From: an uncultured delta proteobacterium
GTDB lineage: Bacteria; Desulfobacterota; Binatia; UBA9968
Direction: 5' to 3'
NCBI GenBank assembly: GCA_963745035.1
Contig: CAVUVW010000027.1
Coordinates: 128,001-192,000 of the forward strand
DNA: 64,000 nucleotides
Under the pieces are notes generated by a model, which ran no database searches, was not told the DNA's origin, and was given only the letters and a program-made list of their open reading frames with translations. Position 1 is the stretch's first letter; every line of letters starts with the position of its first letter. Both the position numbers and the translations under genes were made by a program. Of the stretch, positions 11,577 to 50,641 are shown piece after piece.

Positions 11577-11630
11577 GTTCAAGACGTTCAAATCGTTCAA
11601 TCGCTATGCTCCGTTCAAGCTGTCCGAACA
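11577..11630. repeat. 9-nt GTTCAAnnn tandem repeat element (copy 1)
   Basis: GTTCAAGAC GTTCAAATC GTTCAATCG ctatgctcc GTTCAAGCT GTCCGAACA. Confidence 0.75.
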
Positions 11631-11668: not shown

Positions 11669-12637
11669 TCACATTCCCAACTCGCGCTGCGCTTCGCGCA
11701 GCAAACTCATGTCATGGGCGACGGACACCGGCACATTGGTTTTTTTCGTTTGCTGCTGGATAAAGCTCCATTCGATGCTGAGATCATCGTCGCTGAGCAT
11801 ACCGTTCTTGCTGAAACCGGGATTCGCCAATTCCAATGACCGGAGCGCGTCTTTCTCCGTCGCCCTCGTCCAGGCCATCAGAATCTTGACCGTGTCTTTA
11901 GGATTTGTCTGCAATAGTTGCAGGCTGCGCAGCATCGCGCGAAGCGCGCGTTTGATCAGATCGGGATCTTTCCTGATCCTCTCTTCGCGGACCCCGAGGC
12001 CGGCAATGGGGTTGACGACGATCTCCGCCGTGTTGCCGAGTAGCCGATAGCCCTTATTCTCCAGTTGAACGTTGGTCGGCAGAGGCATCAGACTGCCCTG
12101 GGCGATGTTCTTGTCCAGCGCGGCGATGCGCGCCGGCGTGGGGCCCAGCGCCAACAACTGATAGTCGCCTTTCTTCAGACCAAGATGCTGTAAATGCTTT
12201 TCGGTGAGAATCGCTTGAGTGTTGCCGAAAGACGCGACGGCGAAAACTTTACCCTTCAACTCGGACGCCGAGGTAATCTCCGGGCGCACAACCAGGGCGA
12301 ACAGGGGGCGAGAATTCAACGCGGCGACCAGCTTTGTACCGAGGCCTTGCATGGCGCCGTTGAGCACAGGGGAAATGTTGAGTGAAAAGTCGATATGACC
12401 GTTCGCCAGCGCCACAGTGGCGACGTTGCCGTTCATCTGAATGAGCTGGGGCTCCAGGCCCTCGCTGCGGAAGAAGCCTTTCTCCACCGCGACTTTGACG
12501 GGAAACCAGGTCATGCTAACGGCCGAATAGGACAGCGTCACTTTTCGCGGTTCGGGACCGGCGGCGGCCTGTGCTCCGAGAGACGCGAGGAAAAGCAATG
12601 AAAGCTGAAGGAGAAATTGCCGGACCGGCGATATCAT
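11669..12637 (-). CDS. ABC transporter substrate-binding protein (NMT1/TauA/SsuA family)
   Basis: Signal peptide, EKGFFRSEGL, ELKGKVFAV. Confidence 0.85.
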   Translation of the reverse strand: MISPVRQFLLQLSLLFLASLGAQAAAGPEPRKVTLSYSAVSMTWFPVKVAVEKGFFRSEGLEPQLIQMNGNVATVALANGHIDFSLNISPVLNGAMQGLGTKLVAALNSRPLFALVVRPEITSASELKGKVFAVASFGNTQAILTEKHLQHLGLKKGDYQLLALGPTPARIAALDKNIAQGSLMPLPTNVQLENKGYRLLGNTAEIVVNPIAGLGVREERIRKDPDLIKRALRAMLRSLQLLQTNPKDTVKILMAWTRATEKDALRSLELANPGFSKNGMLSDDDLSIEWSFIQQQTKKTNVPVSVAHDMSLLREAQRELGM

Positions 12638-16610: not shown

Positions 16611-18451
<1,841 letters not shown>

Positions 18452-30662: not shown

Positions 30663-32013
30663 ATGCGAATCGCCATTACCACGCTCGGCTGCAAGATCAA
30701 TCAATACGATTCGGCGGTGATTCAGAGCCGCTTGGAAGAAAAGCATTCGTTCGTGCCGTTCGACGCCGAGGCGGATTGCTACCTGATCAACACCTGTACG
30801 GTGACCGATCGCGCCGACTGGGAGGCGCGCCAGCTCGTGCGCCGCGCCCGGCGCTTGAATCCCGCGGCCAAGGTGCTGGTGACCGGCTGCTACGCCCAGG
30901 TGAGTCGCGGAGGAAGTCGCCGCGGTTCCCGGAGTCGATTTCGTCGTCGGCCTCAACCGGCTCGACGATCTGCTGCGCTTCGTCGAAGCGCCCGGGCGAA
31001 GTGCGCCGGCGATCGCGGTGAGCGACGTGAAACGGGAGCGCGGCGTGGCCGTGCTCGGCACGCGCGCGTTGCCCGGCCACACGCGTGCTTTTCTGAAAAT
31101 CCAGGAAGGGTGCAACTACAGTTGCACGTACTGCATTATTCCAACAGCGCGCGGGCTCAGCCGCAGCGTGGCGCCGCGCGCGGTGCTGGAGCAGGTGCGA
31201 CAGCTCGCCGAAGGCGGGTACAAGGAGATCGTTCTCACCGGCATCCATCTCGGCGGCTACGGCCATGATTTACAGCCGAAGATCGATCTGACGGCGCTGG
31301 TGGAAATGATCGCGGCGAGCGGCTTGATCGCCCGGCTGCGCTTGAGCTCTCTCGATCCGCGCGAGGCGCCCGATCGGCTGCTCGACCTGATCGCGCGCTC
31401 CGACGTCGTCTGCCCGCACCTCCATATCTGCGCTCAGGCCGGCGACGACGAGATCCTCAAGGGCATGCGGCGCAACTACGGCACCGCCTTTTATCGCGAG
31501 CTGCTCGAGCGCGTGCGCGCGCGCTTGCCGGAGGCTGCGCTGGGCAGCGACGTGATCGTCGGGTTTCCCGGCGAGACCGATGCGCAGTTCGAGAGCTCGC
31601 TCGAATATTTCGCGTCCTTGCCGCTCACCTATTTTCACGTGTTTCCGTATTCCTCCCGGCGCGGCACCGTCGCGGCGGCACTCGCCGACCCGGTGCCGCC
31701 GCGCGTAAAAAAGGAGCGGGCGCGGCGCATGCGGGCGCTGGGCGCGCGCAAAAAAGACGAATTTTGCGAAAGTTTTATCGGCCGGCGCGTCGCGGTATTG
31801 GTCGAGGAGAAAGTCGAGAAGCGAAGCGGGCTGCGTCGTGGGTTCACCCAGAATTATTTGCCCGTCGCCGTCGAAGCGGCAGACGTCAATCGAGAAATCG
31901 GCGTCTATCTCGAGCGCTACAGCGGCGGCTGGTTGAGCGGCGCGATCGCGCCCGGTGAATCAAATGCCTTGCCGCCGGCGCGCCGTTCCTGGGACCGTGT
32001 TGAAAAACGATAA
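30663..32013 (+). CDS. mtaB: tRNA t6A37 methylthiotransferase, frameshift near 30905
   Basis: TLGCKINQYD, NTCTVT, GCYAQ, KIQEGCNYSCTYC, HVFPYS.R.GT. Confidence 0.92.
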
Positions 32014-34903: not shown

Positions 34904-35794
34904 TTATGCCAATCCCATTAGCCGCGCTGGATTGATTGCGGCGACTTGATTCACCTCGCCCTGGCTCAAGCCCCCCTCGTGCAGCATGCCGAGGTACATG
35001 CGGAAGAGTTCTGCTGGGTTTGGGCTGTACGGGCGAAAGTAGTCGGTGCTGGCGATGATTTGCCGCAGGCCGACTTCGCGGAATTGTTTGACGAGCTCCG
35101 GCGAGTCCATCCGGCCCGGGGCCAGAGCGTTCCAACAGGCTTCGAGGAATGCGCCCATCTCGGCGGCGCGCTTCATCGCGTCCACGGGCATCGCGATGAT
35201 GTGGCTCTGCACGTGATTGACGACGATCCGGTGGCTGTAGCCCATGTCGCGCGCGGCTTTGATGAATTCCAAAGATTCCTGCCACGACACGTGGCCCATG
35301 CCGAGAGTGATATCGTTCGCTTTGCAGGCTTCGATGATTTCGTAGCCGCGCGGGATGAGCTTTCCTTTGTCGTCGAGGAAATAGTAATTGGGATTCTCCA
35401 GTTTGGCGTGGCTTTTATAGTACGACTTGATGCGGGCGCTGAAGCCTTTGCGCTCGACGTCGTTGCGCGCGCTCCAAGTCGGCAAAAAAACCATTTTGCC
35501 GCCGAGTTCGGCACAGGCTTCGATGATGCAGGGATTCGGCCCGCCCGCAGTGCTGTTGAGCGCGACGCTCGACCATAGCGCGACTTTGGTTTCCACCGAT
35601 GAAAGAATGTACGGCACGACGTTGACCGTCGGCCACCAGTGCGATTTCAGCACGACGCCGCGCATGCCCATCGCCTCGGCTTTGGGCAGCCAGAGAAACT
35701 CCGGCTCACGCTTGCGCTCTTTGGCGGAAAATTCGAAGTCGATATGGCAGTGGACATCGATCGCGCCTTGCATCATGTCGTCGTAAAGAGTCAT
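34904..35794 (-). CDS. Amidohydrolase-like metalloprotein (DUF6282-like)
   Basis: GAIDVHCH, GVVLKSH, GGPNP, GHVS, NH, STD. Confidence 0.7.
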   Translation of the reverse strand: MTLYDDMMQGAIDVHCHIDFEFSAKERKREPEFLWLPKAEAMGMRGVVLKSHWWPTVNVVPYILSSVETKVALWSSVALNSTAGGPNPCIIEACAELGGKMVFLPTWSARNDVERKGFSARIKSYYKSHAKLENPNYYFLDDKGKLIPRGYEIIEACKANDITLGMGHVSWQESLEFIKAARDMGYSHRIVVNHVQSHIIAMPVDAMKRAAEMGAFLEACWNALAPGRMDSPELVKQFREVGLRQIIASTDYFRPYSPNPAELFRMYLGMLHEGGLSQGEVNQVAAINPARLMGLA

Positions 35795-35811
35795 GTTGCC
35801 GCTCAAAGCAG

Positions 35812-35876
35812 GTGAGAAGTGAGGAGTAGAAGTTAGGAGCAAAGAGCGTCGGAGAATCACCTTACTCCTGACTCTT
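35812..35876. repeat. Degenerate 7-nt GTgAGgA repeats with an inverted CTnACTC arm
   Basis: GTGAGAA GTGAGGA GTAGAA GTTAGGA ... CTTACTC CTGACTC. Confidence 0.5.
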
Positions 35877-35895
35877 GTTGTTACACGTGTACTCG

Positions 35896-37188
35896 TCACG
35901 ACACGATTGTCAGACGCTCGGAGCGGGCGCCGCCGCAGCAGCGTTTATACTTCTTGCCGCTGCCGCAAGGGCAGGGATCGTTTCGTCCGGCTTGGCGGAC
36001 GGAAGCTTTTGCGTCCGCGGCGCGAACGATCTCCATCAACTTTTCGATCGGCTCGCCGGCCTCGACCAGCTCGGCGAATTTTTGAAAATACGGCTTGCTG
36101 TGGCCGAAGAATGACTTGAGGCCGGCGCAAAGATAGTTGAGCCCGTCTTCGCCGGACGGCGTCTTGATGATCCGGTCCTTGGGGCAGCCGCCGTTGCACA
36201 TGCTCAACACTTCGCACTCGCGGCAATACTTCGGCAGGCTGGTCCACTTGGCCTGGCCGAACTCGCGCTGCTTCGGATCTTCGACCATGTCCGCGAGCGG
36301 GCGATCGTGGATGTTGCCGATTTTGTACTCGGGCGTCACGTAATGATCGCAGGAATAGAAGTCGCCGTTGTGCTCGACCACCGGCACGTCGCCGCAGGTT
36401 TCGCGGTAAATGCACAGCGCGTGCTCCATGCCGAGAAACGGCCGCACCGATTCGTCGAAGAGTTGGATGAAAATCTTGCCGATATCGTGGCGCACCCATT
36501 CGTCGAAAATCGTGTTCAGAAATTTTCCATAGGCCGCGGCCGGCACCGAGCGCTTGTGGACGGGATTGGCCGGGTCGCCGGTTTTTTCGACCAGCGGCAG
36601 GAATTGCAAATACTGCCCGCCGATCTCCTTCAAGTAGCGATAGACTTGGGTCGGATATTTGACGTTGACGTCGTGGACGACGGTAAGCAGATCGACGTGC
36701 ACCTTGGCGCGCCGGAGCATGTGAAAAGCCTGGACGACTTGCTTGTGGGTCGGCTTCTGCCCCTTGGTGACGCGGTAGTGGTCGTGCAGCTCGCGCGGTC
36801 CGTCGAGGCTGAGGCCGATATAAAAATTTTCCTTGGCGAGAAACTCGCACCATTCGTCGTCGATGGTTGTGCCGTTGGTCTGAATGCCGTTGATGATTTT
36901 TTTGTCCGGCGGCAGATGCTTTTTCTGCAGCGCGACCGCCTTGCGGAAAAAATCGACGCCGAGCAAGGTCGGCTCGCCGCCGTGCCAGGAAAAGCTGACG
37001 GTTTCTCCGGGCGTCGCCTGGATATGCTGGATGATGTAGCGCTCGAGGGTTTCATCGTCGAGGCGGAAGTTGGTGCCCTTGGGATAGAGATTCTCTTTGT
37101 CGAGATAATAGCAATAGTGGCAATCGAGGTTGCAAATCGCCCCGATCGTCTTGACCATGATCTGAAACTCACGCGCCGCGGTTTCCAT
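35896..37188 (-). CDS. Anaerobic sulfatase maturase-type radical SAM/SPASM protein with C-terminal SEC-C motif
   Basis: CNLDCHYCYY, WHGGEPTL, QTNG, YSCDH, CNGGCPK, GRNDPCPCGSGKKYKRCC. Confidence 0.9.
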   Translation of the reverse strand: METAAREFQIMVKTIGAICNLDCHYCYYLDKENLYPKGTNFRLDDETLERYIIQHIQATPGETVSFSWHGGEPTLLGVDFFRKAVALQKKHLPPDKKIINGIQTNGTTIDDEWCEFLAKENFYIGLSLDGPRELHDHYRVTKGQKPTHKQVVQAFHMLRRAKVHVDLLTVVHDVNVKYPTQVYRYLKEIGGQYLQFLPLVEKTGDPANPVHKRSVPAAAYGKFLNTIFDEWVRHDIGKIFIQLFDESVRPFLGMEHALCIYRETCGDVPVVEHNGDFYSCDHYVTPEYKIGNIHDRPLADMVEDPKQREFGQAKWTSLPKYCRECEVLSMCNGGCPKDRIIKTPSGEDGLNYLCAGLKSFFGHSKPYFQKFAELVEAGEPIEKLMEIVRAADAKASVRQAGRNDPCPCGSGKKYKRCCGGARSERLTIVS

Positions 37189-37326
37189 GCTGAGGACTCT
37201 ACTCAAAAACGCCTGCGAAGTCACCACCCGCCGGGCCGTTTCGAACCCGAGGGTTCTCCCGGATAGTTGACAGATCGGCGGATTGCCATGAGAATTGCCA
37301 ATGGGCCACTCACACGACGTCAGTCC

Positions 37327-37765: not shown

Positions 37766-38320
37766 GTGAATTTCACCGTTAAACAGAAGGGTGTGGTTCG
37801 TGGTGTCGTGCCGGCGGCGATCATCACACTGGCGGGGCTGTGCGGTGTCTCGCTTTTGATTCCGATGGACGTGCTGCCGGCGGACGAGGCAGGCGCGAGG
37901 CTTGCCTGGGCTTTGCGATGGTCTCTCATTCCGGTTCTCGCGCTGGTCATCGCCATAGCGCGGGTTGGAAATTTCCGCTTCTCTTCGCCTCAGGATATCG
38001 ATGGGAGCGGTCTGACGAACGCATCGCCGCAAATCCAGATTCTTCGGGCCGTGCTGCAAAATACACTGGAGCAAACAGTATTGGCGGTTGGGACCTATCT
38101 GATTTGGGCAGCGGCGATGCCGCACCGGTGGCTGAGAGTCATTCCGGTGGCGGCGATGCTCTTCATCGGCGGGCGTGTGCTCTTTGCCCGCGGATACAGC
38201 AAAGGCGCCGGCGGAAGAGCAATGGGATTCGGACTGACCATGTATGGAACGGCAGGGATGCTTGCCACGGTCACGCTTGTTCTGTCCTATCGCCTTTTGG
38301 CATGGGCCATTATGCAATAG
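37766..38320 (+). CDS. MAPEG-family membrane protein
   Basis: LQNTLEQ, F..GRVLF..GY, RAMGF; about 4-5 TM helices. Confidence 0.7.
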   Translation: MNFTVKQKGVVRGVVPAAIITLAGLCGVSLLIPMDVLPADEAGARLAWALRWSLIPVLALVIAIARVGNFRFSSPQDIDGSGLTNASPQIQILRAVLQNTLEQTVLAVGTYLIWAAAMPHRWLRVIPVAAMLFIGGRVLFARGYSKGAGGRAMGFGLTMYGTAGMLATVTLVLSYRLLAWAIMQ

Positions 38321-38334
38321 CAACGTATGTCGAC

Positions 38335-39096
38335 ATGACAACAATAGCCAGAACCAGTGCCGGCGACTTCTTCGACGAATGGTCGATTTACGACCAAATC
38401 CTGACCCATAACTACATGTACCACGATGATATCTTCGAGGACGTGAGGCAATTTCTCGCCGATCGTTATGCTGACGAGCGATTCAGTATCATAGATCTCG
38501 GCTGCGGCAGCGCACGTCACTTGGCGCGCGCTCTGGAAGGCCGCTCGGTCAGCGGTTATGCTGGGATACGATCTTTCGGACGAGGCGCTCCAGCACGCTC
38601 AAAAGAATCTCAGTTTTCTCGATTGCCCGGTCGATTTGCGGCACGGGGACTTGCTGGATGGGGTTAAGAATTCGGCGAGAGTTGGGATCTCGTCTTCAGC
38701 AGCTTCGCGCTGCACCACCTTTCCGCTGCGCAAAAAGCGGATTTTCTAGCTGCCTCTTATCGGCGGCTCAATCCCGATGGAATCTGTCTGGTGATCGACA
38801 CGATGCGCGATGACGGCGAGGACCGCGCGACTTACCTCGATCGATATTGCGCCTGGCTCGGCTCACGCTGCGAATCTCTGTCAGCGGACACATTAAAGCA
38901 TGTTTTCGCTCACATCCGGGCGAACGATTTTCCGGAAAGCCAAAAGGACTTTGAAGAGATGGCGGTCCGCGCGGGCTTCGCTCGCAAGACCGAGATCAGC
39001 TCGATATCGCTGGCATCACGGCTGGTGCTTGAGCAAAGGCGAAAGAGTAACGATCTGCCCTCGGCGCTGCGGCGCGCTTTGTCATTGCAATCGTAG
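38335..39096 (+). CDS. Class I SAM-dependent methyltransferase, multiply frameshifted
   Basis: IDLGCGSA, GYDLS, SSFALHHL, LNPDG, DFPE spread across three frames; end uncertain. Confidence 0.65.
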
Positions 39097-39167
39097 AGTT
39101 TACCAGGCTATTAAAACACATGACTCGCGAGTGTGCTTGTTGCCCTACCGCGGGCAGGAGGGAAGCG

Positions 39168-40509
39168 ATGATTCGGATCGTTCACATCGTCAACCAGTTT
39201 TTCGCCGGTATCGGTGGTGAAGACAAGGCCGGGGTAGGGGTTGGTGTGACCGCCGGGGCCGCAGGCGCAGCGCGCGGGCTCGAAGCGCAGCTTGGCGGCC
39301 GTGGCCAAGTCATCGCGACCATCCATTTCGGTGACAATTACTTTCACGAGCAAAAGCAAGAGGCGCTGGCGGCGATACTCGCCGAAGTGGAAAAGCAAAA
39401 AGCGGACGTGGTCGTTGTCGGTCCGGCCTTCAATGCCGGACGCTACGGGCTGGCTTGCGTGGAGATTTGCCAGGGTATCAGCGAACGCCTCGGCCTAGCA
39501 TGCGTGACGGGTATGGAGCCGGAGAATCCCGCCGTTAGTCTGTATCGAGATGCCCACAACGAGAAAGTGTTCCTGTTTCCAACCGCCGAGACGACGGCGG
39601 GAATGGCCAGTGCTTTGAAAGTTGTTACGCCGTTTGCCTGCCGTGTTGCCCTCGGTGAAAAGATCGGTACAGCGGACGCCGAAGGTTATGTAGCGCGCGG
39701 CATTCGCCGCCTGACCCAAGTGGATCGACCGGCGGTCGATCGCGCCATCGACATGCTGCTCGCCAAGGTTGCGGGCGAGCCGTTCCAAACTGAAGTGCCG
39801 ATGGAAGTCTGGGACAAGGTCGCGCCCGCTGCGCCGCTGCCCGATGCGGCTGCCGCCAATCTCGCAGTCATCTGCACAGGCGGCGTGGTGCCGTGGGGCA
39901 ATCCGGACGGGTTCAAAACCTACCGCAACACCTTCTGGCGCAAATACAATTTCGCCGAGCTGAAATCGCTCGACGTCGGGCAAGTGGGAAGCGGTGCACG
40001 GCGGCTACAACGTCGCCTTCATGAATCAGAATCCGCATTACGGCATGCCGCTCGACGCGCTGCGTTCGCTGGAAAGCGAAGGCAAGATCGGCGCCGGCAA
40101 ATTGTATCCCGCCTACTACGTCATCCCGGGCAATCAAGGCTCACCCGCAGTCATGCGCCGCGTCGGCCAGGAGATCGGCGCCGACTTGAAGAAAGAGGGG
40201 ATCGACGGCGTACTGCTCGTCGCCACGTGAGGAACCTGCAGTCGCAGCGGCGCTGTGATTAGCAAGGAACTCGATCGAGCAGGACTTCCAGTAGCGATGA
40301 TCAGCGCCATGTATCCGGTGGCGGAGCAGGTCGGCGCGAGCCGCATCGTCAAAGCAGTTGCCATTCCTCATCCGTGCGGTGATCCGAGTCTACCCGCGGA
40401 CCTCGACGGCCAATTACGCCGCGAAATCGTCGCGACGGCTCTCAAAGCTCTCGAACAAAAGGTGGATACGTCCACCGTCTTCGCGCCGAAGATCGCCGCG
40501 AGCGCATAG
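39168..40509 (+). CDS. grdB: Glycine/sarcosine/betaine reductase selenoprotein B family (Sec at UGA 40228-40230; +1 frameshift near 39980)
   Basis: NQFFAGIGGEDKA, GPAFNAGRYG, GGVVP.GNPD, HGGY, LVAT-U-GTCSRSGA, IPHPCGDP; ~446 aa after correction. Confidence 0.9.
40235..40267 (+). promoter_or_regulatory. Candidate bacterial SECIS hairpin
   Basis: cctgc-AGTCGCAGC-ggc-GCTGTGATT-a-gca-a-gg; G-initiated apical loop about 18 nt after the UGA. Confidence 0.7.
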
Positions 40510-40595
40510 GTGCTGAACGCGATCGTAGGCGTGATTCGTGTTCCGAAACAAACGGCAAGGCTCCGCGCGCTTAAATTTTACCGCTAGGAAATACC

Positions 40596-41900
40596 ATGCG
40601 CCTTGAGTTAGCGGAGTTTCCCGTTACGAGCATCTCGATCGGCGAGCGGTTTCATTATGATTCCGCTGAGCTGACGGTGGACCGCGCCGCCATCGAGCAG
40701 GCAGTCTTGGCAGAAAAGCGCATCGAAGCGGCGTGGCTCGAAGTGGTCGCGCCCGGCGATCGAGTCAGGATCACCGGCATTCGCGACGTCGTCGAGCCGC
40801 GCGTGAAAGTGCGCGGCGGCGGACAAGTATTCCCCGGCGTGCTCGGACCAGTCGAGGCGGTTGGCGAAGGCTGCACGCACCGGCTCTCCGGCATGGCGGT
40901 GTTCGTCACGGCGGAATACGAGGGCACGGTACGCGCCGGTCTCGGCGTGCAGCGGAGCGCTATCCTCGACATGTGGGGCGAGGGCGCGGCTGCTTCACCG
41001 TTCAGCGCCTTGCGCGGCGTGGTGCTCAACTTACGATTGGCGCCGGGCCTTTCCGAATTGACCGCCCACGCGATCATCCAGCGCGCCGCTTTCGAGACGG
41101 CAAAAAAATTGGCGGAAACGACTGTCGGCCTGACTCCCGCGAAGACGGAGGTCTTCGAACTCGGCGGCGCAGCGCCGGAACTGCCCAAGGTGCTGCTGAT
41201 TCAGGGTTGCCTCACCGACAGCCCTAATCCGCACTCCGGCGTGAGCTACTTCGGCTTGCCGATCCGCGATTCACTGGCGACGGTGATTCATCCCAACGAA
41301 TTTCTCGACGGCGCTTTTGCGATGTACGCCACCCGGTGCATCGCGTATTTTCCGGTCACTTGGGATTGGCAGAATCATCCGCTTCTGCTCGGCCTGTACC
41401 GCGCCCATCGGCGCCAGGTGAATTTCCTCGGAGTCATTCTGGAGCGGATTCGCTACGACACGTTTCACGGCAAGGAAGTCATCGCGCACAACACCGCGCA
41501 GCTTGCCACGCAGCTCGGCGCGGAGGCGGCGCTGATTTCGTGGCTCGGTTCCGGAAACGCTTTCGTCGACGTGATGCTGACATTGCGCGCCTGTGAGCAG
41601 CGCGGCATCAAGACCAACTTGGTCACTTACGAGTACGGCGGCAAAGATGGAGTGGACTCGCCGCTGCTGTTTTATACCGGGGAAGCGGACGCGATCACCA
41701 GCACCGGCAGCCGCGATCGCTGGATCGACCTGCCGGAGGCCGAGAGAATCGTCGGCCCCTACGAAGAGATCAAAGTGCTCAGCTATCCCGGTGCGCCGCT
41801 GACGCCGGCGCGCGGGCGTTTTACTCTCGATGCGCGCGACATGATTCTCGGCGGGGTGGATTATTGGGGCAGAGGCAATTGGACGTGCGCCGCCTATTAA
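40596..41900 (+). CDS. Glycine/sarcosine/betaine reductase component B proprotein-like (GrdE/GrdI family), copy 1
   Basis: MRLEL, PGDRVRI..IRDVVEPRVKV, THRLSG, HPNEFLDGA, QNHP, GN..VD. Confidence 0.85.
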   Translation: MRLELAEFPVTSISIGERFHYDSAELTVDRAAIEQAVLAEKRIEAAWLEVVAPGDRVRITGIRDVVEPRVKVRGGGQVFPGVLGPVEAVGEGCTHRLSGMAVFVTAEYEGTVRAGLGVQRSAILDMWGEGAAASPFSALRGVVLNLRLAPGLSELTAHAIIQRAAFETAKKLAETTVGLTPAKTEVFELGGAAPELPKVLLIQGCLTDSPNPHSGVSYFGLPIRDSLATVIHPNEFLDGAFAMYATRCIAYFPVTWDWQNHPLLLGLYRAHRRQVNFLGVILERIRYDTFHGKEVIAHNTAQLATQLGAEAALISWLGSGNAFVDVMLTLRACEQRGIKTNLVTYEYGGKDGVDSPLLFYTGEADAITSTGSRDRWIDLPEAERIVGPYEEIKVLSYPGAPLTPARGRFTLDARDMILGGVDYWGRGNWTCAAY

Positions 41901-41995
41901 GAAGATTAGTTCAGAGCTCATTCAGGCCGCTCAAGGTGTTTCCGATTCCAGCTAGCGTAGGCGGGTAAAAATATTTGATGGAGGATTGTCATTAG

Positions 41996-42985
41996 ATGGT
42001 GCGACGATTTTTGGTATTCAATTTGTTGGCGCTGGCTTTGTCCGCGGCGAGCGCGATGGCCGCGGCGCCGGCGAACAAGGTCGTGATTGCCTATTCGGTG
42101 CTGAACGAGCGCGGCACGGGAGCGCTGCTCGTGGCGCGCGATCAAGGATTTTTTCGCAAGTACGATCTCGATGTCAATTTGATTCTCATGCGCAGCGGCG
42201 CGGTAGCGCTTTCGGCGTTGTCTTCCGGAGAAGCGCATTTTTATTCCGGCTCGGCCAACGGCTCGTCGCTCGGTGCCATGGCCGGCGGGCTCGACTTGGT
42301 TTTCGTCGCCGGCTTGGCCAATCAACTGAACGGCACGATGGTCGCCGCGCCGTCGATCCGCGCGCCCGCCGATCTCAAGCGTAAAAACATCGGCATCCAG
42401 AGTATCGGCGGCGGTATCTGGATGATCACCCAATTGGTCCTCGAGCACTGGGGCCTCGATCCCAAGCGCGACGGCATCAATCTGCGCATCGTCGGCGATG
42501 AATCGGTCATGGTCCAGGCGTTGGTCTCGGGCAACATCGATGCGACCTACGCCGGGTATTCCTATGCCACCATGCTCAAGAAGCAGGGGTTCAACATCCT
42601 CGCCGATCTGACCAAGCTCGGCGTGCCGTTCCAGAGCACGGCGATCCTCGCGCGCCGGAGCTATCTGAAAACCTCGCCCGCGACCGCGGAGAAGGTGGTG
42701 CGCGCGCTGGTGGACGCGATCACGTTCATTCAGCGGCCGGCCAACAAGCCCTCGGTGGTGGCGACGTTGACGAAGAATCTGCAGATCGTGCGGCCCGAGG
42801 ATGCCGAAGAGGGCTACGAAGTGATGAAAAACGTCTACGACCGCCGCGTGTTTCCCAACATCGAAGGCATCAACAACGCGATCCGCCTGCTCGGCCTCAG
42901 CAACGAAAAAATCCGCCAGCTCAAAGGCGCGGACCTGGTCGATGACGGCATCGTCAGGAAATTGGAGAAAGAAGGAATCTTTTAG
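41996..42985 (+). CDS. ABC transporter substrate-binding protein (NMT1/TauA family)
   Basis: Signal peptide, DQGFFRKYDLDV, DLKRKNIGI, LEKEG. Confidence 0.85.
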   Translation: MVRRFLVFNLLALALSAASAMAAAPANKVVIAYSVLNERGTGALLVARDQGFFRKYDLDVNLILMRSGAVALSALSSGEAHFYSGSANGSSLGAMAGGLDLVFVAGLANQLNGTMVAAPSIRAPADLKRKNIGIQSIGGGIWMITQLVLEHWGLDPKRDGINLRIVGDESVMVQALVSGNIDATYAGYSYATMLKKQGFNILADLTKLGVPFQSTAILARRSYLKTSPATAEKVVRALVDAITFIQRPANKPSVVATLTKNLQIVRPEDAEEGYEVMKNVYDRRVFPNIEGINNAIRLLGLSNEKIRQLKGADLVDDGIVRKLEKEGIF

Positions 42986-42996
42986 TTTAACAACGC

Positions 42997-43052
42997 GTTC
43001 AACTTACGAAGGCGTTCAAACCGTTCAAAACGTTCAAGTAGTTCAAATCGTT
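42997..43052. repeat. 9-nt GTTCAAnnn tandem repeat element (copy 4)
   Basis: GTTCAA...GTTCAAACC GTTCAAAAC GTTCAAGTA GTTCAAATC GTT. Confidence 0.75.
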
Positions 43053-43107
43053 TTCGGACTCGGTTGTCGAGGCGGCCTGGAACTTCCGCGAAATTAACTC
43101 ACTATTC

Positions 43108-44415
43108 ATGCGACTCGAGATGGCAGAATTTCCGGTGCGCCGAATTCGACTCGGCGGCGCGTACCGTTATCAAGACGGCATTCTGGAAATTGACGGCGAC
43201 GATCTTGTCCGGCGGGTATTGGAAGATCCGCGTATCCGGATGGCCAAATTCGACGTCGTGACGCCGGGCGAGTCCGTGCGCGTTACCGGGATTCGCGATG
43301 TGGTCGAGCCGCGGGTCAAGCTCGGCGGAGCGGCGCAGGTGTTTCCCGGTGTGCTCGGTCCGGTGGCGGCGGTCGGCGGCGGGTTGACCCATCGTCTCTC
43401 CGGCATGGCGGTGCTCGCGACGGCTTCGTACGAGGGAACGGTGCGCGCCGGCACGGGCGTGCAGCGCAGTGCAATTCTCGACATGTGGGGGCGCGGCGCA
43501 GAAGCGTCGCGCTTCAGCTCGCTCATTCACCTTGTGCTGATTCTTGAGATAAACGAAGGTCTCGGTGAGCTCGAAGCGCACAGCGCGATTCAAACCGCCG
43601 AGTTCGAGGTCGCGCGAAAGCTCGCTGAAACGACGGCGGGCCTTGAACCGGCGCGAACGGTCCTCTACGACCTGAGCGACGGCGCCGAGCGGCGTCCCCG
43701 CGTGGTGCTGATTCAAGGCTGTATCACCCAGGCGCAGCAGCCCCATTCCGGCATCGGTTACTATGGCATGCCCATCCGCGAGTCGCTGCCGACGGCGATC
43801 CATCCCAACGAGTTGCTCGACGGTGCAGTCACGCCGAACACCACCCGAGGCATCGGCTATTATCCGACCAGTTGGGACTGGCAGAATCATCCGCTGGCGC
43901 TGGGGCTCTACCGCGAGCACGCCGCCGGCCGGCTGAGCTTCGGCGGCGTGATTCTGGAGCGCATCTCCTACGAAACCCATCAGGCCAAGGAAGTGGTGGC
44001 GCACAACGCGGCGCAGTTGGCGCGCAGCCTCGCCGCCGACGCGGCGCTGATCACCTGGACCGGCTCCGGCAATGCGTTCGTCGAGGTGATGCTGACGATT
44101 CGCGCCTGCGAGCGGTTGGGCATCAAAACCGTACTCGTCACCTACGAGTACGGCGGCAAGGACGGCGTCGATTCGCCGCTGCTCTTCTATGCCGAAGAAG
44201 CGAGCGCGGTGGTCAGCACCGGCAGCCGCGACCGCTGGATCGATCTCGCCGCGCCAGAAAAAGTCGTCGGGCCGTACGACGCCATCCGCGTCCTCAGCTA
44301 TCCGGGCGCGCCGTCCGCTCCGGCGCTCTCCGCTCTCACGCTTGACGCGCGCGATATGATCATCGGCGGCGTGGACAACTGGGGTGGCGGCGCCTGGACT
44401 TGCCGGGCTTTCTAA
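43108..44415 (+). CDS. GrdE/GrdI-like component B proprotein, copy 2
   Basis: Colinear paralogue of 40596-41900 (e.g. shared GVQRSAILDMWG, LVTYEYGGKDGVDSPLLFY). Confidence 0.85.
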   Translation: MRLEMAEFPVRRIRLGGAYRYQDGILEIDGDDLVRRVLEDPRIRMAKFDVVTPGESVRVTGIRDVVEPRVKLGGAAQVFPGVLGPVAAVGGGLTHRLSGMAVLATASYEGTVRAGTGVQRSAILDMWGRGAEASRFSSLIHLVLILEINEGLGELEAHSAIQTAEFEVARKLAETTAGLEPARTVLYDLSDGAERRPRVVLIQGCITQAQQPHSGIGYYGMPIRESLPTAIHPNELLDGAVTPNTTRGIGYYPTSWDWQNHPLALGLYREHAAGRLSFGGVILERISYETHQAKEVVAHNAAQLARSLAADAALITWTGSGNAFVEVMLTIRACERLGIKTVLVTYEYGGKDGVDSPLLFYAEEASAVVSTGSRDRWIDLAAPEKVVGPYDAIRVLSYPGAPSAPALSALTLDARDMIIGGVDNWGGGAWTCRAF

Positions 44416-44621
44416 GTTTCTCGACCCTTCCCGTCCGTGTGAAATCTTCGTGATCACCGCGCAGGCGGGCGATCCGAGCGGGATTTTTGTACCCGATTGT
44501 CTGCCTATGGCCTATAATAGCCGCGGCTCCGTAAGGTCGGCCAACTCTCTAAATTGTCATTTTCAACGACACCATCGGAGGATCGTTATCGATCCGCCGG
44601 GAGGCAACCGAGGAACTGATC

Positions 44622-47600
44622 ATGGCAAACAACATTCCGCTCAAGCTTCAAGGCACTCCGATTGCCGATCCCGGGTTGCCGGCCGCGCTGCGCGCGGCGA
44701 CGCGCGGCGCCGCCAAGGCGAGCGAATTCCTGCCGCCGGGCTATCTGAAGGTCGATGCGGCTTTCGATCTTAGCGCGCGCGCTCGGTCCACTCCCGGCGG
44801 CGCCGTGGAGAAAACGATCCAGGCTGGAGACAACCAGGTCGTCGTCCTTGAGATGGCCGACGGCGTCACCGTCATCACCAGCGCAAAAAAATTACAAGAG
44901 TCGCTGCGGCGCATCGATCCCGCCGCCATCGAAGCCGACGGCACGGCAAGATTAGCCGCCCTGCGCGAGCGCGGCGAGGCCAGCCGCGGCATCATCAGCG
45001 ACACCGTCGGCGATCTGGTATCGCGGGTATTCACGGTGACCGTCGGCGATAGCGCCGATCCGATTATCGATGCGGCGAAACGCAAGGCCGCCGAATGGCT
45101 GGGCGAGAAGGCCGAGGAGAAGATCCAGGCCTATTCCGAGCTCGGTGTCACCTGGCTCGGCACCAAGGCGCTCATGTGGGCGATCGAGAGCCGGCTGGAC
45201 CGCAAGCCCGGACTGTATCGCTGGCCGCGCGGCATGGGCGAGGCGGTAGACCTGTTGAACGTCGACGCCGACGCGCTGGCGGCGGACGCCAGGGAAGGGC
45301 CGCTGCTGATTTTTATTCACGGCACCGCATCGTCGAGTACGGGCAGCTTCGGCGATTTGCAGAAAGTCGGCCACGAAGACTGGCAGGCGCTCGAACGGAA
45401 GTTCGGCGACCGCATCTACGCCTTCGAGCATCTTACGTTCTCGCAAAGCCCGATCGAGAACGCCATCGAGCTCGCGGCCGCGCTGCCCGCGGGCGCGCAG
45501 GTGAACCTGGTGACCCACTCGCGCGGCGGCTTGATCGGCGATCTGCTCTGCCTGCGCAGCCCGGCCGATGAGCTGATCGAAAACTTCCGGTCCGATTTAC
45601 CGGAGCCGGGCGAGGTCTTGGAAGAGGAGCGCGAGCGCATCAAGAAAGAAACCGAGAACGCCCACGCCGAACAGCAAGGACAGCTCCGCGAGCTGCGCGC
45701 GCTGCTGCAACGAAAGCAGCTCGCCGTCCAACGCTACGTCCGCGTTGCCTGCCCGGCGCGCGGCACGCTCCTGGCTTCGGGCAATTTCGATATTTTTCTT
45801 TCCGCGCTGCTGACCGTGATCGGCCGGGTGCCTTACCTTTACGGCAATCCGATTTACTACGCGGTCAAGCGCATCGTGCTCGAGATCGTCAAAAACCGCA
45901 CCAATGCCAAGCTCGTGCCCGGCATCGAAGCGATGCTGCCCGAGTCTCCGATGGCGCGTTTTCTCGCCGAGGCTGCGCCGCAGGAATCAACCCGGATCGC
46001 GGTCATCGCCGGCGATATCGAAGGCGGCGGCCTGCTCAAGCGCTTGGGCGTGCTCTTCACCGACTACGCCTTTTTCAACGGCGTCGACAATGACCTGGTC
46101 GTCGATACCGACGCCATGTACGCCGGGATCGCACGGAAGGCCGGCGGGCGCGCGCTTTTCGACCAGGGCCCGACCACGTCGCACTTCAGTTATTTTCAAA
46201 ACGACGACACGCGCGCGGCGCTGCGCGATTGGCTGATCGCCGACGGCGTCGAGCAGTTGGCCACGTTCAAAGTTCTTCCTGGTGCGCGTCCCGAGCGCAG
46301 CTTAGCGGAAGAAAAGGCCCATGCGGCCGAGTTGCGGCGCAGCCGCGGCGGCGAAGCAGCCGAGGCGATCTTGCCCGTGGCGGTCGTCCTCCCGGGCATC
46401 ATGGGCTCCCATCTCTGGCGCAACGAAAGCGAGCGGGTGTGGTACCGCGTTGCCGGCTTGGTGGTCGGCGGCCTCAGAAATCTCGCATGGGGCGAGCGCA
46501 CGGGCAGCGAGAGCGGCGACGGGATCACGGCGGAAAAGCTTTTCGACGATTCCTACGGCGACCTGTGCGATCATCTCATGGAAACCCACCGTGTCGAACG
46601 CTTTCCTTACGATTGGCGCTTGCCGCTCGACATCCTCGCCGATCGCCTGGAGAGATTTTTGCGGCGGCTCTTCGAGGAAACCAAAAATCCGCAGCGGCCC
46701 ATTCGCATCCTCGCTCACAGCATGGGCGGCCTGGTGGCGCGCGCGCTGATTCACAAGCTCGCCCAGCGCCAAGACAATCTGTGGGACGATCTCATGGGCC
46801 GCGACGGCGCGCGCTTTATCATGCTCGGCACGCCCAACCAGGGTGCGCACTCGATGGTCGAGGCGCTGATCGGCAAGTCGGATACGCTGCGCAGTCTCGC
46901 CCGCATCGACGTGAGAAACGACCTGCAGAGCATTCTCGACATCATCGGTGAATTCCGCGGCGCGCTGCAGCTCCTGCCGAAGCCCGGATTTGCCGACGTC
47001 GGCGACGCCCAGTTCGACGATTATTTCACCGCTGGCGCGCTGGAGCGCGTTCAAAGAAGAGATGAAGGATTTCTGGTTCGGCGACAAGGTCGCGGCGGTG
47101 CCGACCGCCGCCGCGCTCAGCCAAGCCAAATGGCTGTGGGAGCGCGACGGCGTGCTGCCGCCGGCGCTGCCGGAGCGCCATAAAGACAAGACCATCTACG
47201 TCCACGGCTGCGCGCCGACGACCGCCTGCGGCATCAAGAAAATCGACGGCCGCTGGAAAATGGTCGGCACCGTTCGAAGGCGACGGCACGGTCACCTGGA
47301 AGTCGGGCGCGATAGACGGCATCGGCCGGCGCTATTACATGCCCGCGGTGCACGGCGATCTCGCCGCCGCCGAGGAGTATTTCACCGCCTTGGACGAACT
47401 GCTGCGCACCGGCGCCACCGGCGCGTTGATGGATCGACCGCCGGAAACGCGCGACGCCGAGGCGGCAGAACCGCGAGCGTATGAAGCAGGACCGCCGCGC
47501 TACCCCATGCCCGAAGAAGCGGCACACGCGCTGACCGGCGTGCCCAAGCGCAAGCGTCTCGCCGAGCGCGCGGTGCCGACCTTGAAGGTCGCGGTGAAGG

Positions 47601-50600
47601 CGATGGATCTGCGCTTCGTCAACCAGCCGATCATGGTCGGCCACTACGAACAGGACGCAATCTCGGGCGCCGAGTCGATCATCGACCGCGAGCTGGTCGA
47701 TAACGCGCTGAGCGAGCGCTACAACCTGGGACTTTACGCCGGTCCGGTCGGCACCGCGGTGGTCGTGCTGCGTCTGCCCAACGAAGCGGAGCGACTGCGC
47801 GGCAGCTCCTACGGCGCGGTGGTGACCGGCCTGGGCACCTACGACGGCACACTGGCGGCCAACCGGCTCACCGAGGCGGTGCGCACCGGCGCGCTGCGCT
47901 ACCTGCTCCAGTATTTCGATTGCAGCGGCGTGGGCTCTGGAGAGATCGGCCTCAGCACCCTGCTGCTGGGCTACAATTCCAGCGCCAATCTGACCATTCA
48001 AGCTTCCGTCGAGGCGCTGGTGCGCGGCGTGGTGGAGGCCAATCGCAAGTTTGCCGACGCCACCCGGCAGACTCTGCACATCGGCTCGCTGGAGATCATC
48101 GAGCTTTATCTCGATACCGCGATCTCGGCGATGCGCTACTTGCGCGCTTTCGCCGAGAAGTCCAACGGCGAGGCGCGCGGCCTGGGCGTTCGCTTGGAGA
48201 TTCCCGAGGAACTGGAACAAGACCGGAGCGTGCGGCCGAGATTGGACGATAGCCGCGCGGTCGGCCATTGGCCGCGCATGATCATCACCGACGCGGACCG
48301 TAATGAAGAAGAATGCCCGCCGGAGTGCTATGAGCGCCTTTTCCCGCCTGAGAGCTACGACGAGGGTGAGCGCGAGGATGAAAACGCGGGCGGCGAAACC
48401 AAAACGCCGGCGCGGCTGCGGCGGCGAACCGCGCTCGCCGAGCGCTTGAAATTCGTCCACGTCGGCCAGCGCGCGCGCGCCGAGACCATCGTGCAGCAGC
48501 GCCAACCCGGATTGGTGGAAAAGCTCATTGCCCAACAGATTCTGGAAAAAAACTATCGCCCGGATTTCAGCCGGACGTTGTTTCAATTGATGGTGCCCCA
48601 TGAATTCAAAGACGCCTCGCGCCAGCTCGATCGCATCGTGCTGGTGGTGGACGGATACACTGCGAATTTGCCTTGGGAGCTGATGCTGGCCGAGGACGAA
48701 CCGCTCGCGGTGCGCTCGCCGATGATCCGCCAGCTGGTGTCGAGCAAGTTTCGCCGGCAGGTGCGCCAATCGCTGCAGCCGCTCGCCTACGTGATCGGCA
48801 ATCCCTCGACCGCGAACTTTTATCGAAGCTTTCCTTCGCCGGACCGCAGGCCGTCCGAAGGATTGGTTTCGCTCGCCGGCGCCCAGGAGGAGGCCGAAGT
48901 GGTGGTCGAATCCTTGCGCCGCTACGGCTACGAGGTGGAGCAGTCGATCGGCGCGGAATATGATGCGCTCAAAGTCATCAACCCGCTGTATCAAAAACCT
49001 TATCGCATCGTGCACATCGCCGCGCACGGCGTCTTCGACGAGCGCGCGGCGGACGGCAAGAGCCGCAGCGGCGTGGTGCTCGCCGACGGGCTGCTGCTGA
49101 CCGCCGCGGAGATCGGCCAGATGGAGATCGTGCCCGATCTGGTGTTTCTCAACTGCTGCCACCTCGCCAAGGTGGACGCCCAGCCGGTCGCCTACAACCG
49201 CCTGGCCTACAGCATCTCGCGGGAACTGATCGAGATCGGCGTGCGCTGCGTGGTCGCTGCCGGGTGGGCGGTGGACGACGATGCCGCCTACACGTTCGCC
49301 GACGTGTTCTACCAAGGAATTCTCCACGAAAAACTCCAGTTCGGCGACGCCGTGTTCGCCGCGCGCAGGGAAACCTATCGCAAGCACGGCGGCAGCGTCA
49401 CCTGGGGAGCCTATCAAGCCTACGGCGACGCCGGTTGGCGCATCGACCCGCGCGAAGGCTCGGGGCGCCGGGGGCGCGGCAGCGCCGACTTTGTTTCGCC
49501 GGAGGAATTGATCGACGGCATGAGGGGAATTCGCACCGGCATCTTCCAACGGCGCGAGGCCCTGACCAAGCCGGCGGCGCGCAGCACCGCAGCGCAGCTC
49601 CAAGTGCTATTGCGCCGCGGTCCAAAGAACTGGCTCGACGATCCGGCGGTCAGCTTCGAACTGGCGGAAACCTACGCGTCGCTCGGCGCGGAATTTTTCG
49701 AGGAGGCCTGCAAACTGTACAACGTCGCGATCGCCGCCGAGGACAGGGCGCACCGCGTGCCCATCACCGCCATCGAGCAGCTCGCCAATATTGAATCAAA
49801 GCTCGGCGAAGAGATGGGCGCGCCGGATTTGATCGACCGTGCCATCGAGCGGCTTTATGATCTGGACAAAGTCGTCGCCGGGACCGTCGATTACGGCTCC
49901 GGCCGGCGCATCGAAGCAGCCGCATCGAAGGCCAACATCGAGCGCCAGTCGCTCGCTGGCAGCGCTTACAAGAGAAAAGCCGCCATCTTCGCGCGCCAGA
50001 TTCTCGATCCGCGTACGCCGGATCGGCAGGAGTCGATCAAAAAGTTCGAAGAGGCGATCGGACAGAGCATCGAGGCCTACAGAAATGCCTCGGGAGCCGA
50101 GAACGAGGCGCGTTTCGATCCGTATCCGGCGCTCAACTGGCTCGCGCTCCGGGCGCTCGACGGCGCCTACGACCAAGGTGTCGCCGTTTGCGTGCTGTGC
50201 GGCAAGAAGGCCACCGAAAAGTTCATGCGCGCCGCCAATGTTTGGAATGCCGTGATGGCCGCCGAAGCCTATCTGGTCCAAACGCTATGCGACGGCAGCC
50301 TGGGCCGACCGCGCGACGCGGGCGATCAAGCTCTCGAGGAAGTTTGGCGGCGCTACCGCGATGCCTTTGCCAACGTCCGCTTTGCGCCGAAGGACCTCGA
50401 CGCGGTGACTTTACAGCTCTGTCTGCTGGCGCTGTTTTTCGAAGCGAAAAGCGCGACCGGCACACAGGCCGCGCGCAGCAGAGCCCACGGCGCGGCGGCG
50501 CATCGCCTGCGCCGGCTCGCCGAACGAATCCAGCCGGGAAGCTGCGAGGATCCGACGCCGCCGGCGCGAGTGGAAACGGCGCGGGAGACCCTGCCCGAGC

Positions 50601-50641
50601 CGGCGGCTCCCCGGCGGCGGGCAAGGCGACGGCGACGGTAG
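44622..50641 (+). CDS. ~2005-aa protein: two alpha/beta-hydrolase (lipase-like) domains + CHAT caspase-like domain + TPR-like C-terminus; +1 frameshifts near 47035 and 47275
   Basis: IHGT/THSRGG; LPGIMGS/YDWR/AHSMGG/LGTP/GDGTV/HGDL; HIAAHG and FLNCC; LAGSAYKR, YPALNW. Confidence 0.8.

Follow-up and report, generated by a model that had tools for sequence, protein, structure and literature searches.

The 64,000-nucleotide stretch of DNA analyzed here (hereafter the window; positions 128,001 to 192,000 of contig CAVUVW010000027.1 in assembly GCA_963745035.1, an uncultured delta proteobacterium assigned to the Binatia lineage UBA9968) carries four co-directional genes, all on the plus strand at 39168-44415, which encode a GrdB-like selenoprotein, a first GrdE-like protein (E1), a solute-binding protein, and a second GrdE-like protein (E2). 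These genes probably form one of several substrate-specific "protein B" modules that share a GrdA and a GrdC within a Grd-type system devoid of GrdD, in an order that probably belongs to Binatia. This interpretation draws on the identities of the genes, the selenocysteine (Sec) codon and the machinery for its decoding, the presence of partner genes elsewhere in the genome, the absence of GrdD, the classes of paralogues, and synteny. Gene identities in the window were assigned by scanning 58 open reading frames (ORFs) with Pfam, with part of the short ORFs lying outside the scan. An earlier note, made from the sequence alone, had described the order grdB(Sec)-grdE1-binding protein-grdE2; the genes are present in that order and on one strand, with Pfam matches and an in-frame TGA. 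For grdB, the gene and its Sec codon were correctly recognized, but the note did not report that the reading frame is broken in the assembly. The features of the module are as follows.

39168..39980, plus strand: GrdB-like selenoprotein, N-terminal 270 residues in frame 0 (Pfam GRDB, 279.3 bits, profile positions 2-265 of 347)
39976..39981, plus strand: +1 frame break in GrdB, with one extra G in a GGG run, so that two frames are needed
39979..40509, plus strand: GrdB-like selenoprotein, C-terminal 176 residues in frame +1 (Pfam GRDB, 64.9 bits, profile positions 268-347)
40228-40230, plus strand: Sec codon TGA in the motif A-T-U-G-T-C-S-R-S-G (translated with TGA as U)
40228..40273, plus strand: hairpin resembling a selenocysteine insertion sequence (SECIS), starting at the UGA (minimum free energy -20.7 kcal/mol, z -2.29)
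40596..41900, plus strand: GrdE-like paralogue 1 (E1), 434 aa, Cys-type (PF09338, 286.5 bits)
41996..42985, plus strand: NMT1/SsuA-like periplasmic solute-binding protein, 329 aa, with an N-terminal signal peptide (PF09084, 69.6 bits; PF13379, 57.5 bits)
43108..44415, plus strand: GrdE-like paralogue 2 (E2), 435 aa, Gly-type (PF09338, 291.6 bits)

Genes for GrdA, GrdC, GrdD, and the thioredoxin system are absent among the 58 scanned ORFs, so that the statement of the earlier note that none occurs in the 64 kb holds for this set. A grdC-grdA pair is found outside the window in the same genome (G000; 7.43 Mb, 28 contigs, 92.6% complete), at C13:1654710-1656549, with grdC directly upstream of grdA. 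The GrdA (C13:1654710-1655141, 178.1 bits) contains one TGA, within a C-F-V-U sequence that conforms to CxxU, and the GrdC scores 556 bits against the NF040746 cut-off of 450. A thioredoxin reductase (TrxB) gene lies apart from the grd genes at C13:1428977-1429882 (TIGR01292, 421.7 bits against 343.45). The genome search for grdA, grdC, and grdD proposed in the earlier note therefore recovered the first two but not the third, the best GrdD match reaching 24.9 bits against a cut-off of 350. The genome also contains three further GrdB/GrdE loci, on contigs C11 (intact, U-G-T-C-S-R-S), C13 (intact, U-G-T-S-T-R-S), and C15 (in several frames), as well as four heme-copper oxidase subunit I matches. 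The C15 locus (L004, G000:C15:300967-303440) holds a GrdE/GrdB pair of the U-G-T-S type broken into several frames, which could be a pseudogene or reflect further assembly errors. Separately, a short PrdB-like gene (L006, G000:C13:1522076-1522483, minus strand) has an in-frame TGA in U-P-A-C, scores 79 bits with TIGR04483 (cut-off 300), and adjoins glutathione S-transferase, NMT1 binding-protein, and amidohydrolase genes.

The same combination of genes recurs across the order. Among 41 genomes (including G000 and the unpublished G005, without which each count falls by at most one), GRDB matches occur in 37, with up to 10 matches per genome, GrdC in 34 (30 above the cut-off), GrdA in the same 34, and GrdD in none. 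In each of these 34 genomes, GrdA is present as a single copy with one TGA and adjoins GrdC. The GrdC proteins fall into three lineages that are 40-49% identical to one another; most of the 41 genomes have one match and four have two, some of them fragments. At the level of the class (151 genomes, searched for GrdC and GrdD), GrdC is found in 14 genomes, all from the three families of this order, and GrdD in none; it is likewise missing from the closed, single-contig assemblies available for the order. Three of the 201 genomes searched for GrdD in the phylum encode it (478-544 bits), indicating that the search detects GrdD where it is present. Named relatives of E1 and the related loci belong to metagenome-assembled genomes labeled "Candidatus Binatia bacterium" or "delta proteobacterium", apart from a few bins that bear different names, which agrees with the non-clostridial lineage proposed in the earlier note.

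Related loci place the GrdB/GrdE genes directly beside grdC and grdA. In a synteny survey of 73 related loci, 11 (L017-L023, L028, L030, L045, and L067) show a GrdE gene followed directly by GrdC and GrdA genes, with GrdB before GrdE wherever the contig reaches; in several, this block is preceded by two additional GrdE genes and by binding proteins of two kinds. None of the 11 loci has anything resembling GrdD after grdC-grdA. In another genus, locus L093 has the order grdC-grdA-grdE-grdB, and L096 carries grdC, grdE, and grdB in this order, with an unexamined gap of 600 nt between grdC and grdE. A conserved substitute for GrdD was sought beside grdC-grdA, without success in L005, L093-L096, and the type-B loci; only a thioredoxin-fold DUF255 (Thioredox_DsbH) protein of about 500 aa appears, encoded divergently from grdC on the minus strand in two genera (L093:5166-6665 and L096:5492-7015), and it could serve as a dedicated reductant. 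In L020 and L023, grdA is followed by a TPR-S protein with a patatin-like lipase.

These results bear on the proposal of the earlier note that the module is a stand-alone selenium-dependent enzyme cleaving C-N or C-S bonds without proteins A and C, which we consider very improbable. Such independence would agree with the absence of grdA, grdC, grdD, and thioredoxin-system genes from the window, with the five of 37 GRDB-positive genomes of the order in which neither GrdA nor GrdC is matched (G001, G009, G020, G021, and G032; 65-95% complete), with a GrdB motif that lacks the third Cys of UxxCxxC, and with the 27 of 53 GrdE genes of the Gly type found without GrdB within 7 kb. However, the host genome itself encodes a Sec-containing GrdA beside GrdC, this adjacent pair recurs in 34 of the 41 genomes and co-occurs with GRDB in 32 of the 37, the five exceptions are drafts of 80 to 850 contigs, and the clade is operonic with grdC-grdA in the 11 related loci. 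The earlier note had held that a full grdA/C/D set elsewhere, together with nesting of the genes among characterized glycine, sarcosine, or betaine reductases, would speak against its proposal; A and C do lie elsewhere, whereas D was not found and the genes fall outside the characterized types by the tests run.

The GrdB gene starts with MIRIVH, with an AGGAGG located 8 nt upstream. Its TGA can be read as selenocysteine because tRNA-Sec, selA (592.3 bits), selB (346.9 bits), and selD (384.6 bits, itself with an in-frame TGA) are all present in the genome. A TGA occupies the Sec position in all 45 related GrdB genes, 39 of which share the sequence U-G-T-C-S-R-S-G-A. When the 58 nt at 40228-40285 were folded, the hairpin formed in the first 46, and 6 of 200 shuffled sequences folded equally well. 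The UxxCxxC redox motif given for GrdB in passages of a review (PMC13188914) is replaced in the window by U-G-T-C-S-R-S and occurs in only one of the 45 related genes.

GrdB reads plausibly in frame 0 as far as ...ELKSLDVG and in frame +1 starting with GKWEAVHGGYN, which places the shift within gtcgggcaag at about 39976-39981. The intact C11 paralogue reads ...ELKELEPGKWEAVHGGYN in one frame across the corresponding junction, indicating that the window gene has one base too many in gtcgggcaag. The frame is kept across this junction in 38 of the 39 related GrdB genes in which both parts could be placed, the window being the sole exception. Contigs from two public metagenome runs of different studies (X5 and X9), about 98% identical over the site, both omit one base at 39978, whereas X1 does not cover this position and a contig from an RNA library (X20) begins at about this point and is uninformative on the indel. 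Because the X5 and X9 contigs lack the base and 38 of 39 relatives remain in frame, the break is most likely an assembly error. A programmed +1 frameshift was rejected on the evidence of the same relatives and the same two runs.

The frameshift could instead be real and the cluster in the course of being lost from this strain, but such decay is improbable. The break is indeed visible in the assembly, an extra binding-protein gene found upstream in relatives is missing here, the C15 GrdE/GrdB pair is broken in several frames, and loci L026, L081, and L032 share the flanks of the module without GrdB and E1. However, there is a single break, it falls in a G run, and two independent runs lack the base, while E1, the binding protein, and E2 are intact. 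The other indels in the X contigs over 5.4 kb are either intergenic (39148/39150, 40546, and 41912) or 3 nt long (44037). In addition, two housekeeping genes of the window are split in a similar way: MiaB into overlapping ORFs in different frames (30663-31268, UPF0004; 31018-32013, Radical_SAM), and FtsH, whose ORF at 17516-18451 lacks the ATPase part and begins at the AAA lid domain, and is overlapped on its upstream side by an ORF in a different frame (region 16858-18451). Such splits point to indel errors in the assembly.

Profile searches place GrdB within the selenoprotein B family but outside its characterized types. Its N- and C-terminal halves reach 244.2 and 168 bits with TIGR01918 (various_sel_PB, cut-off 65.45 bits), and its Pfam scores exceed the PF07355 GRDB cut-off of 22. 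With the specific NCBIfam models, the two halves score 240.1 + 156.5 bits for GrdF, 214.1 + 156.8 for GrdB, and 217.2 + 145.4 for GrdH; the sums of about 397, 371, and 363 bits lie below the respective equivalog cut-offs of 800 (NF040794), 602.2 (TIGR01917), and 775 (NF040795). The intact C11 paralogue, taken up to the Sec, gives 300 bits against the GrdB equivalog cut-off of 602.2, and the window GrdB gives 81.2 bits with PrdB (cut-off 300). A motif published for GrdB, YxNx6GGE..CGD..GPxF[NF]AGRYG..AHGGxD[QTAP]x8RV[IL]PxD..TxGNxTxV, and one for GrdF, IHGGYDR..TTGTGT (PMC9751293), are matched by none of the 31 intact GrdBs of the clade; among the parts of the GrdB motif, the window halves fit only GPxF[NF]AGRYG, and the U-G-T-S class of GrdB is nearer to the published motifs yet fails too. 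Among 75 full-length GrdB-family representatives nearest to the C11 paralogue, only P0181 approaches a characterized type (GrdH, 578.9 bits over the N-terminal part), indicating that the clade belongs to a large uncharacterized diversity. A sequence search of the PDB with GrdB returned no solved relative. Four proteins of 774-798 aa (P0150, P0169, P0205, and P0209) have their GrdB part in the C-terminal half, from about residue 430-457, and end at the place of the Sec; they are probably GrdE-GrdB fusions.

Both GrdE-like proteins belong to the PF09338 proprotein family, scoring 286.5 (E1) and 291.6 bits (E2) against a cut-off of 22.2, and they are 64% identical to each other. The specific models again give low scores: GrdG (NF040793, cut-off 780) matches E1 with 197.3 and E2 with 189.6 bits, FarE (NF053623, cut-off 675) with 98 and 95.6 bits, and the window proteins reach 23-36 bits with PrdA (cut-off 700) and 27 bits with PrdD (cut-off 320); no specific GrdI match was returned for them. 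Taken together with the published GrdB and GrdF motifs, these NCBIfam cut-offs (GrdB, GrdF, and GrdH; GrdG, FarE, and PrdA) uphold the description of the module in the earlier note as non-canonical.

In Clostridioides difficile GrdE, according to passages of PMC9908766, the pyruvoyl group derives from Cys242 and the pyruvoyl peptide begins at residue 242. E1 has Cys at residues 93, 205, 248, 333, and 431, and Cys248, the sole Cys between residues 206 and 332, lies within a few residues of the place that the profile predicts for the pyruvoyl precursor; the residues after it resemble the published peptide by eye. The predicted structure of E1 (predicted local distance difference test score, pLDDT, 90.0; predicted template modeling score, pTM, 0.91) puts Cys248 in a loop between a strand (241-243) and a helix (255-259). 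E2 has Gly in this column and Cys only at 205, 334, and 432, with none between 206 and 333. In a census of 78 full-length GrdE-like genes from the loci, 53 have Gly in this column, 11 have Cys, 10 have Ala, and the remaining 4 have Thr, Ser, or Gln; nine of the 11 Cys-type genes directly follow GrdB. A quick tree of 80 rows, with support from the Shimodaira-Hasegawa-like approximate likelihood ratio test only, contains at least six supported clades, among them one of 10 rows with E1 (support 96) and one of 9 rows with E2 (support 99), so that the two GrdE-like paralogues named in the earlier note stand as separate conserved orthologue groups. E1 finds 1438 relatives at E <= 0.001 among 8000 scored.

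Structure comparison adds no functional lead as far as the E1 model goes. A PDB sequence search with E1 yielded only chance-level matches (E 0.11 and 0.17), and no complex similar to GrdB-GrdE was found in the PDB by sequence. Foldseek returned no PDB match to the E1 model at E <= 0.001 (the best, a subtilisin, has E 3.7e-3 and a template modeling score of 0.18). The best match in a wide VIA-align search has a Z of 8.8 over 108 residues with a root-mean-square deviation of 3.1 A; the matches are generic alpha/beta folds (flavodoxin- or Rossmann-like) on residues 194-430, and the N-terminal half is barely covered.

Divergence of this kind could merely reflect phylogenetic distance, with the module being an ordinary glycine, sarcosine, or betaine protein B, but this is unlikely. 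GrdF and GrdG are the best-scoring specific models, E1 retains a Cys at the presumed pyruvoyl place, and the automatic names in the source records are glycine or sarcosine reductase. Against this, the summed GrdB scores are about half of the cut-offs, none of the 31 clade GrdBs fits the published motifs, and the binding proteins are SsuA/TauA-like and not known to be of the betaine-binding kind. Moreover, more than three specificities are implied by the number of GRDB matches, which reaches 10 in a single genome, and by the GrdE tree, with its six or more supported clades.

The conservation of the module was followed in orthologous loci (L009-L014 and L061), in which E1 is 82-85% identical to that of the window and GrdB lies in one frame in L010-L014 and L061. 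The gene order there, as far as the contigs reach, is DUF6282 (minus strand), radical SAM (minus), MAPEG (plus), an extra NMT1 binding protein, GrdB, E1, binding protein, and E2. DUF6282 and radical SAM genes lie upstream in L009-L013 and L061 wherever the contig reaches, the DUF6282 gene not being reached in L010 and L012; MAPEG was not seen in L012 and L061. The extra NMT1 binding-protein gene stands just upstream of GrdB in L009-L013 but was not seen in L061, and in the window it is missing, with a methyltransferase-like stretch in its place. Loci L026 and L081 contain the flanks of the window (DUF6282, radical SAM, and DUF7379), two binding proteins, and an E2 orthologue without GrdB and E1, and L032 contains only the two upstream flanks and an E2 orthologue. 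These three loci indicate gain or loss of GrdB-E1 at this site.

Instead of being an alternative partner of GrdB, E2 could act in an accessory or independent role together with a binding protein of its own, comparable to the uncleaved PrdD/PrdE, a reading that we regard as rather doubtful. It would fit the lack of any Cys between residues 206 and 333 of E2, the E2 orthologues that persist without GrdB-E1 in L026, L032, and L081 (with a binding protein), and the 27 of 53 Gly-type GrdE genes that have no adjacent GrdB. However, the other 26 Gly-type genes lie directly beside GrdB, and the genomes without GrdB at this site carry other GrdB genes. A predicted complex of L010 GrdB (353 residues, up to the Sec) with its own E2 orthologue also seats E2 on GrdB, with an interface score (ipSAE, interaction prediction score from aligned errors) of 0.94 in three runs against 0.00 for the best control, a pLDDT of 90-91 for the partner, and contacts that agree by at least 90% between runs. 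In a benchmark, which is rough since the test used its own alignments, 116 of 157 solved complexes and 2 of 215 mismatched pairs attained the 0.94 mark. The earlier note had suggested modeling GrdB with each GrdE; for the E2 orthologue, the prediction favors a fit. The model shows that E2 keeps a surface fitting GrdB, without implying that binding actually occurs.

The binding protein belongs to the module by position. Loci L009-L013 (73-84% identity) and L026, L058, L061, and L081 (84-85%) have its orthologue ahead of that of E2, consistent with the dedicated binding protein described in the earlier note. Judged from its sequence, it is only distantly like TauA-, SsuA-, or NrtA-type proteins: it scores 65.4 bits with SsuA_fam (TIGR01728, cut-off 163.5) and 33.3 bits with TauA (TIGR01729, cut-off 304.25), lies above the cut-offs of the broad Pfam NMT1 families only, and has 3qsl (E 3e-10) and TauA 6ssy (E 4e-7) as its nearest solved chains. 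Two further NMT1/SsuA-like proteins are encoded in the window at 10605-11552 and 11669-12637, besides that at 41996-42985. Searched against the whole genome, the binding protein finds 250 separate places, 228 of them of at least 600 nt, mostly with no visible transporter genes alongside.

Contigs of the X20 RNA library align with parts of E1 (0-1 differences), of the binding protein, and of E2; the number of differences per piece ranges from 0 to 13 overall, and one 429-nt contig spans the binding protein into E2. These matches are a weak hint of expression of the module, because DNA can occur in RNA libraries. A scan of 38300-44800 for promoters and terminators gave no excess of sites over shuffled sequences.

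On this basis, a working scheme can be proposed, in which every chemical step, as well as the substrate and the function assigned to the binding protein, is our inference. The periplasmic protein of the NMT1 type would capture a small compound of the X-CH2-COO- type for uptake. In the cytoplasm, GrdB together with a GrdE-type subunit would act on it, the Sec cleaving the bond to the alpha-carbon and taking over the carboxymethyl group. E1 would undergo self-cleavage at its Cys and form a Schiff base with a primary or secondary amine, like GrdE and GrdG, whereas E2 may stay uncleaved and act as the alternative partner when the substrate requires no Schiff base. The carboxymethyl group would then pass to the single GrdA encoded on another contig. 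The housekeeping thioredoxin system may reduce this GrdA and GrdC alone may unload it, and the acetyl unit could leave without GrdD as acetate, acetyl-CoA, or acetyl phosphate. The substrates and the end product probably differ from the textbook ones, since the substrate-binding half is duplicated and the lineage lacks one standard subunit.

Several points weigh against the shared-partner interpretation. The coupling to grdA, grdC, and the thioredoxin system is deduced from co-occurrence and from other genomes, because none of these genes lies in the window; the five GRDB-positive genomes without a GrdA or GrdC match do not conform to it, and the GrdC and GrdA that related loci encode beside the clade share only 40-47% identity with the pair of the host genome. 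The proposed ending is left unexplained, because canonical chemistry needs GrdD to form acetyl phosphate. GrdB is broken in the assembly as given, and the extra G could be a strain-specific mutation, as the strains behind the frame-restoring X5 and X9 contigs differ from this one by about 2%. The equation of E1 Cys248 with GrdE Cys242 comes from profile coordinates and a by-eye comparison of peptides rather than a tool alignment, because homologue searches, including one with the most divergent GrdE (L080), returned only environmental relatives. Since proteins closely related to a true partner can also pass such a test, the good fit of E2 in the complex model may only reflect its likeness to E1. 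Finally, the Pfam scan of the window found no ATP-binding cassette (ABC) permease or ATPase gene beside the binding protein.

A broader form of the shared-partner interpretation can be put forward tentatively. In one order of soil Binatia possessing aerobic oxidases, a single GrdA/GrdC would serve a radiating set of protein B modules, with GrdEs of both the Cys type and the Cys-less type each paired to periplasmic binding proteins, that cleaves varied X-CH2-COO- compounds reductively, and acetyl release would proceed by GrdC alone along a route that avoids acetyl phosphate made by GrdD. The candidate compounds would extend beyond glycine, sarcosine, and betaine to N-, S-, or halogen-substituted acetates.

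Glycine reductase-type selenoenzymes are held to be a hallmark of strictly anaerobic amino acid fermenters, with a fixed set of subunits and an ending in acetyl phosphate and ATP; in the textbook scheme, GrdD carries the acetyl thioester and makes acetyl phosphate. D-Proline reductase clusters hold uncleaved proprotein paralogues, PrdD and PrdE. The clostridial Grd complex of Peptoclostridium acidaminophilum, Clostridium sticklandii, and C. difficile comprises GrdA, the pairs GrdB/E, GrdF/G, and GrdH/I, GrdC/D, and thioredoxin. The system described here shares with it the families of protein B (PF07355 and PF09338), protein A (PF04723), and the C beta subunit (NF040746), Sec in both GrdB and GrdA, several B modules per genome with a single GrdA, and, in E1, a Cys at the presumed pyruvoyl place. 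Unlike the clostridial complex, it occurs in an order and class without GrdD, its genes for B, A/C, and the thioredoxin system are scattered, GrdB has U-G-T-C-S-R-S in place of UxxCxxC, most GrdE paralogues lack the Cys, NMT1 binding proteins lie inside the clusters, and the host encodes heme-copper oxidases.

Other members of the family resemble the module in part. Its likeness to sarcosine reductase lies in GrdF and GrdG being the best-scoring specific NCBIfam models for GrdB and GrdE, but the scores amount to about half of the cut-off for GrdF and a quarter for GrdG, and GrdD and the thioredoxin system are absent from the window cluster; the sarcosine cluster of "Candidatus Formimonas warabiya" DCMF, trxB-trxA-grdA-grdC-grdD-grdG-grdF, is by contrast complete and contiguous in the excerpts of PMC9768040. 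PrdA and PrdB share with the module a homologous Sec subunit and proprotein family, and E2 is an extra paralogue comparable to PrdD/PrdE, whereas the window GrdB is full length (446 aa class), unlike the short PrdB. FarE of Synergistota, as described in PMC10838667, is a GrdE-family subunit for a non-amine substrate, which brings other X-CH2-COO- compounds within reach of the family; E1 and E2 differ from it in lineage and reach 98 and 95.6 of the 675 bits required. In the portions of PMC1976440 on the Olavius symbiont selenoproteome, no GrdA or GrdB is listed, and the SAO-system preprint 10.1101/2022.07.06.499078, to judge from its excerpted text, is unrelated to the Grd system. A full-text search found no literature joining Binatia and glycine reductase, and none of the matches listed concerned a GrdD-less system.

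What is new here is the combination of Grd core families without GrdD and a diverged, multiplied protein B tied to uptake proteins, in a widespread soil lineage with oxygen reductases. If the system is active, it would widen the substrate range and the habitats of selenium-dependent reductive C-X cleavage, and, with GrdD naturally missing, its role would become open to direct testing. The names "glycine reductase" and "sarcosine reductase", given automatically to many metagenome genes, would then be wrong.

The surroundings of the module contain further features. The methyltransferase-like stretch between MAPEG and GrdB (38330-39096) has a DLGCG motif recognized by eye and extends over three frames; its scanned pieces gave no Pfam match. 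On the minus strand, 34904-37227 encodes the DUF6282 protein and a radical SAM/SPASM protein of the anaerobic sulfatase-maturase type that carries a SEC-C motif (TIGR03942, 473.7 bits); no sulfatase gene was noticed near this pair. Downstream of E2, at 44622-50641, lie an 853-aa DUF7379 and alpha/beta-hydrolase protein and, after it, a CHAT protease-like protein of 1100 aa that has a TPR-S sensor domain. Arrays of GTTCAA, with one unit every 9 bases, are present in the gap between the binding protein and E2 (43014-43046), where many foreign metagenome contigs pile up, and at 11577, between two NMT1 binding-protein genes. Genome-wide, arrays of at least three units give 193 matches in 125 clusters, with about none expected by chance, and those at G000:C11:123757 and 125180 flank the C11 GrdB and GrdE genes. 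These arrays may represent a repeated intergenic element or an array of regulator sites.

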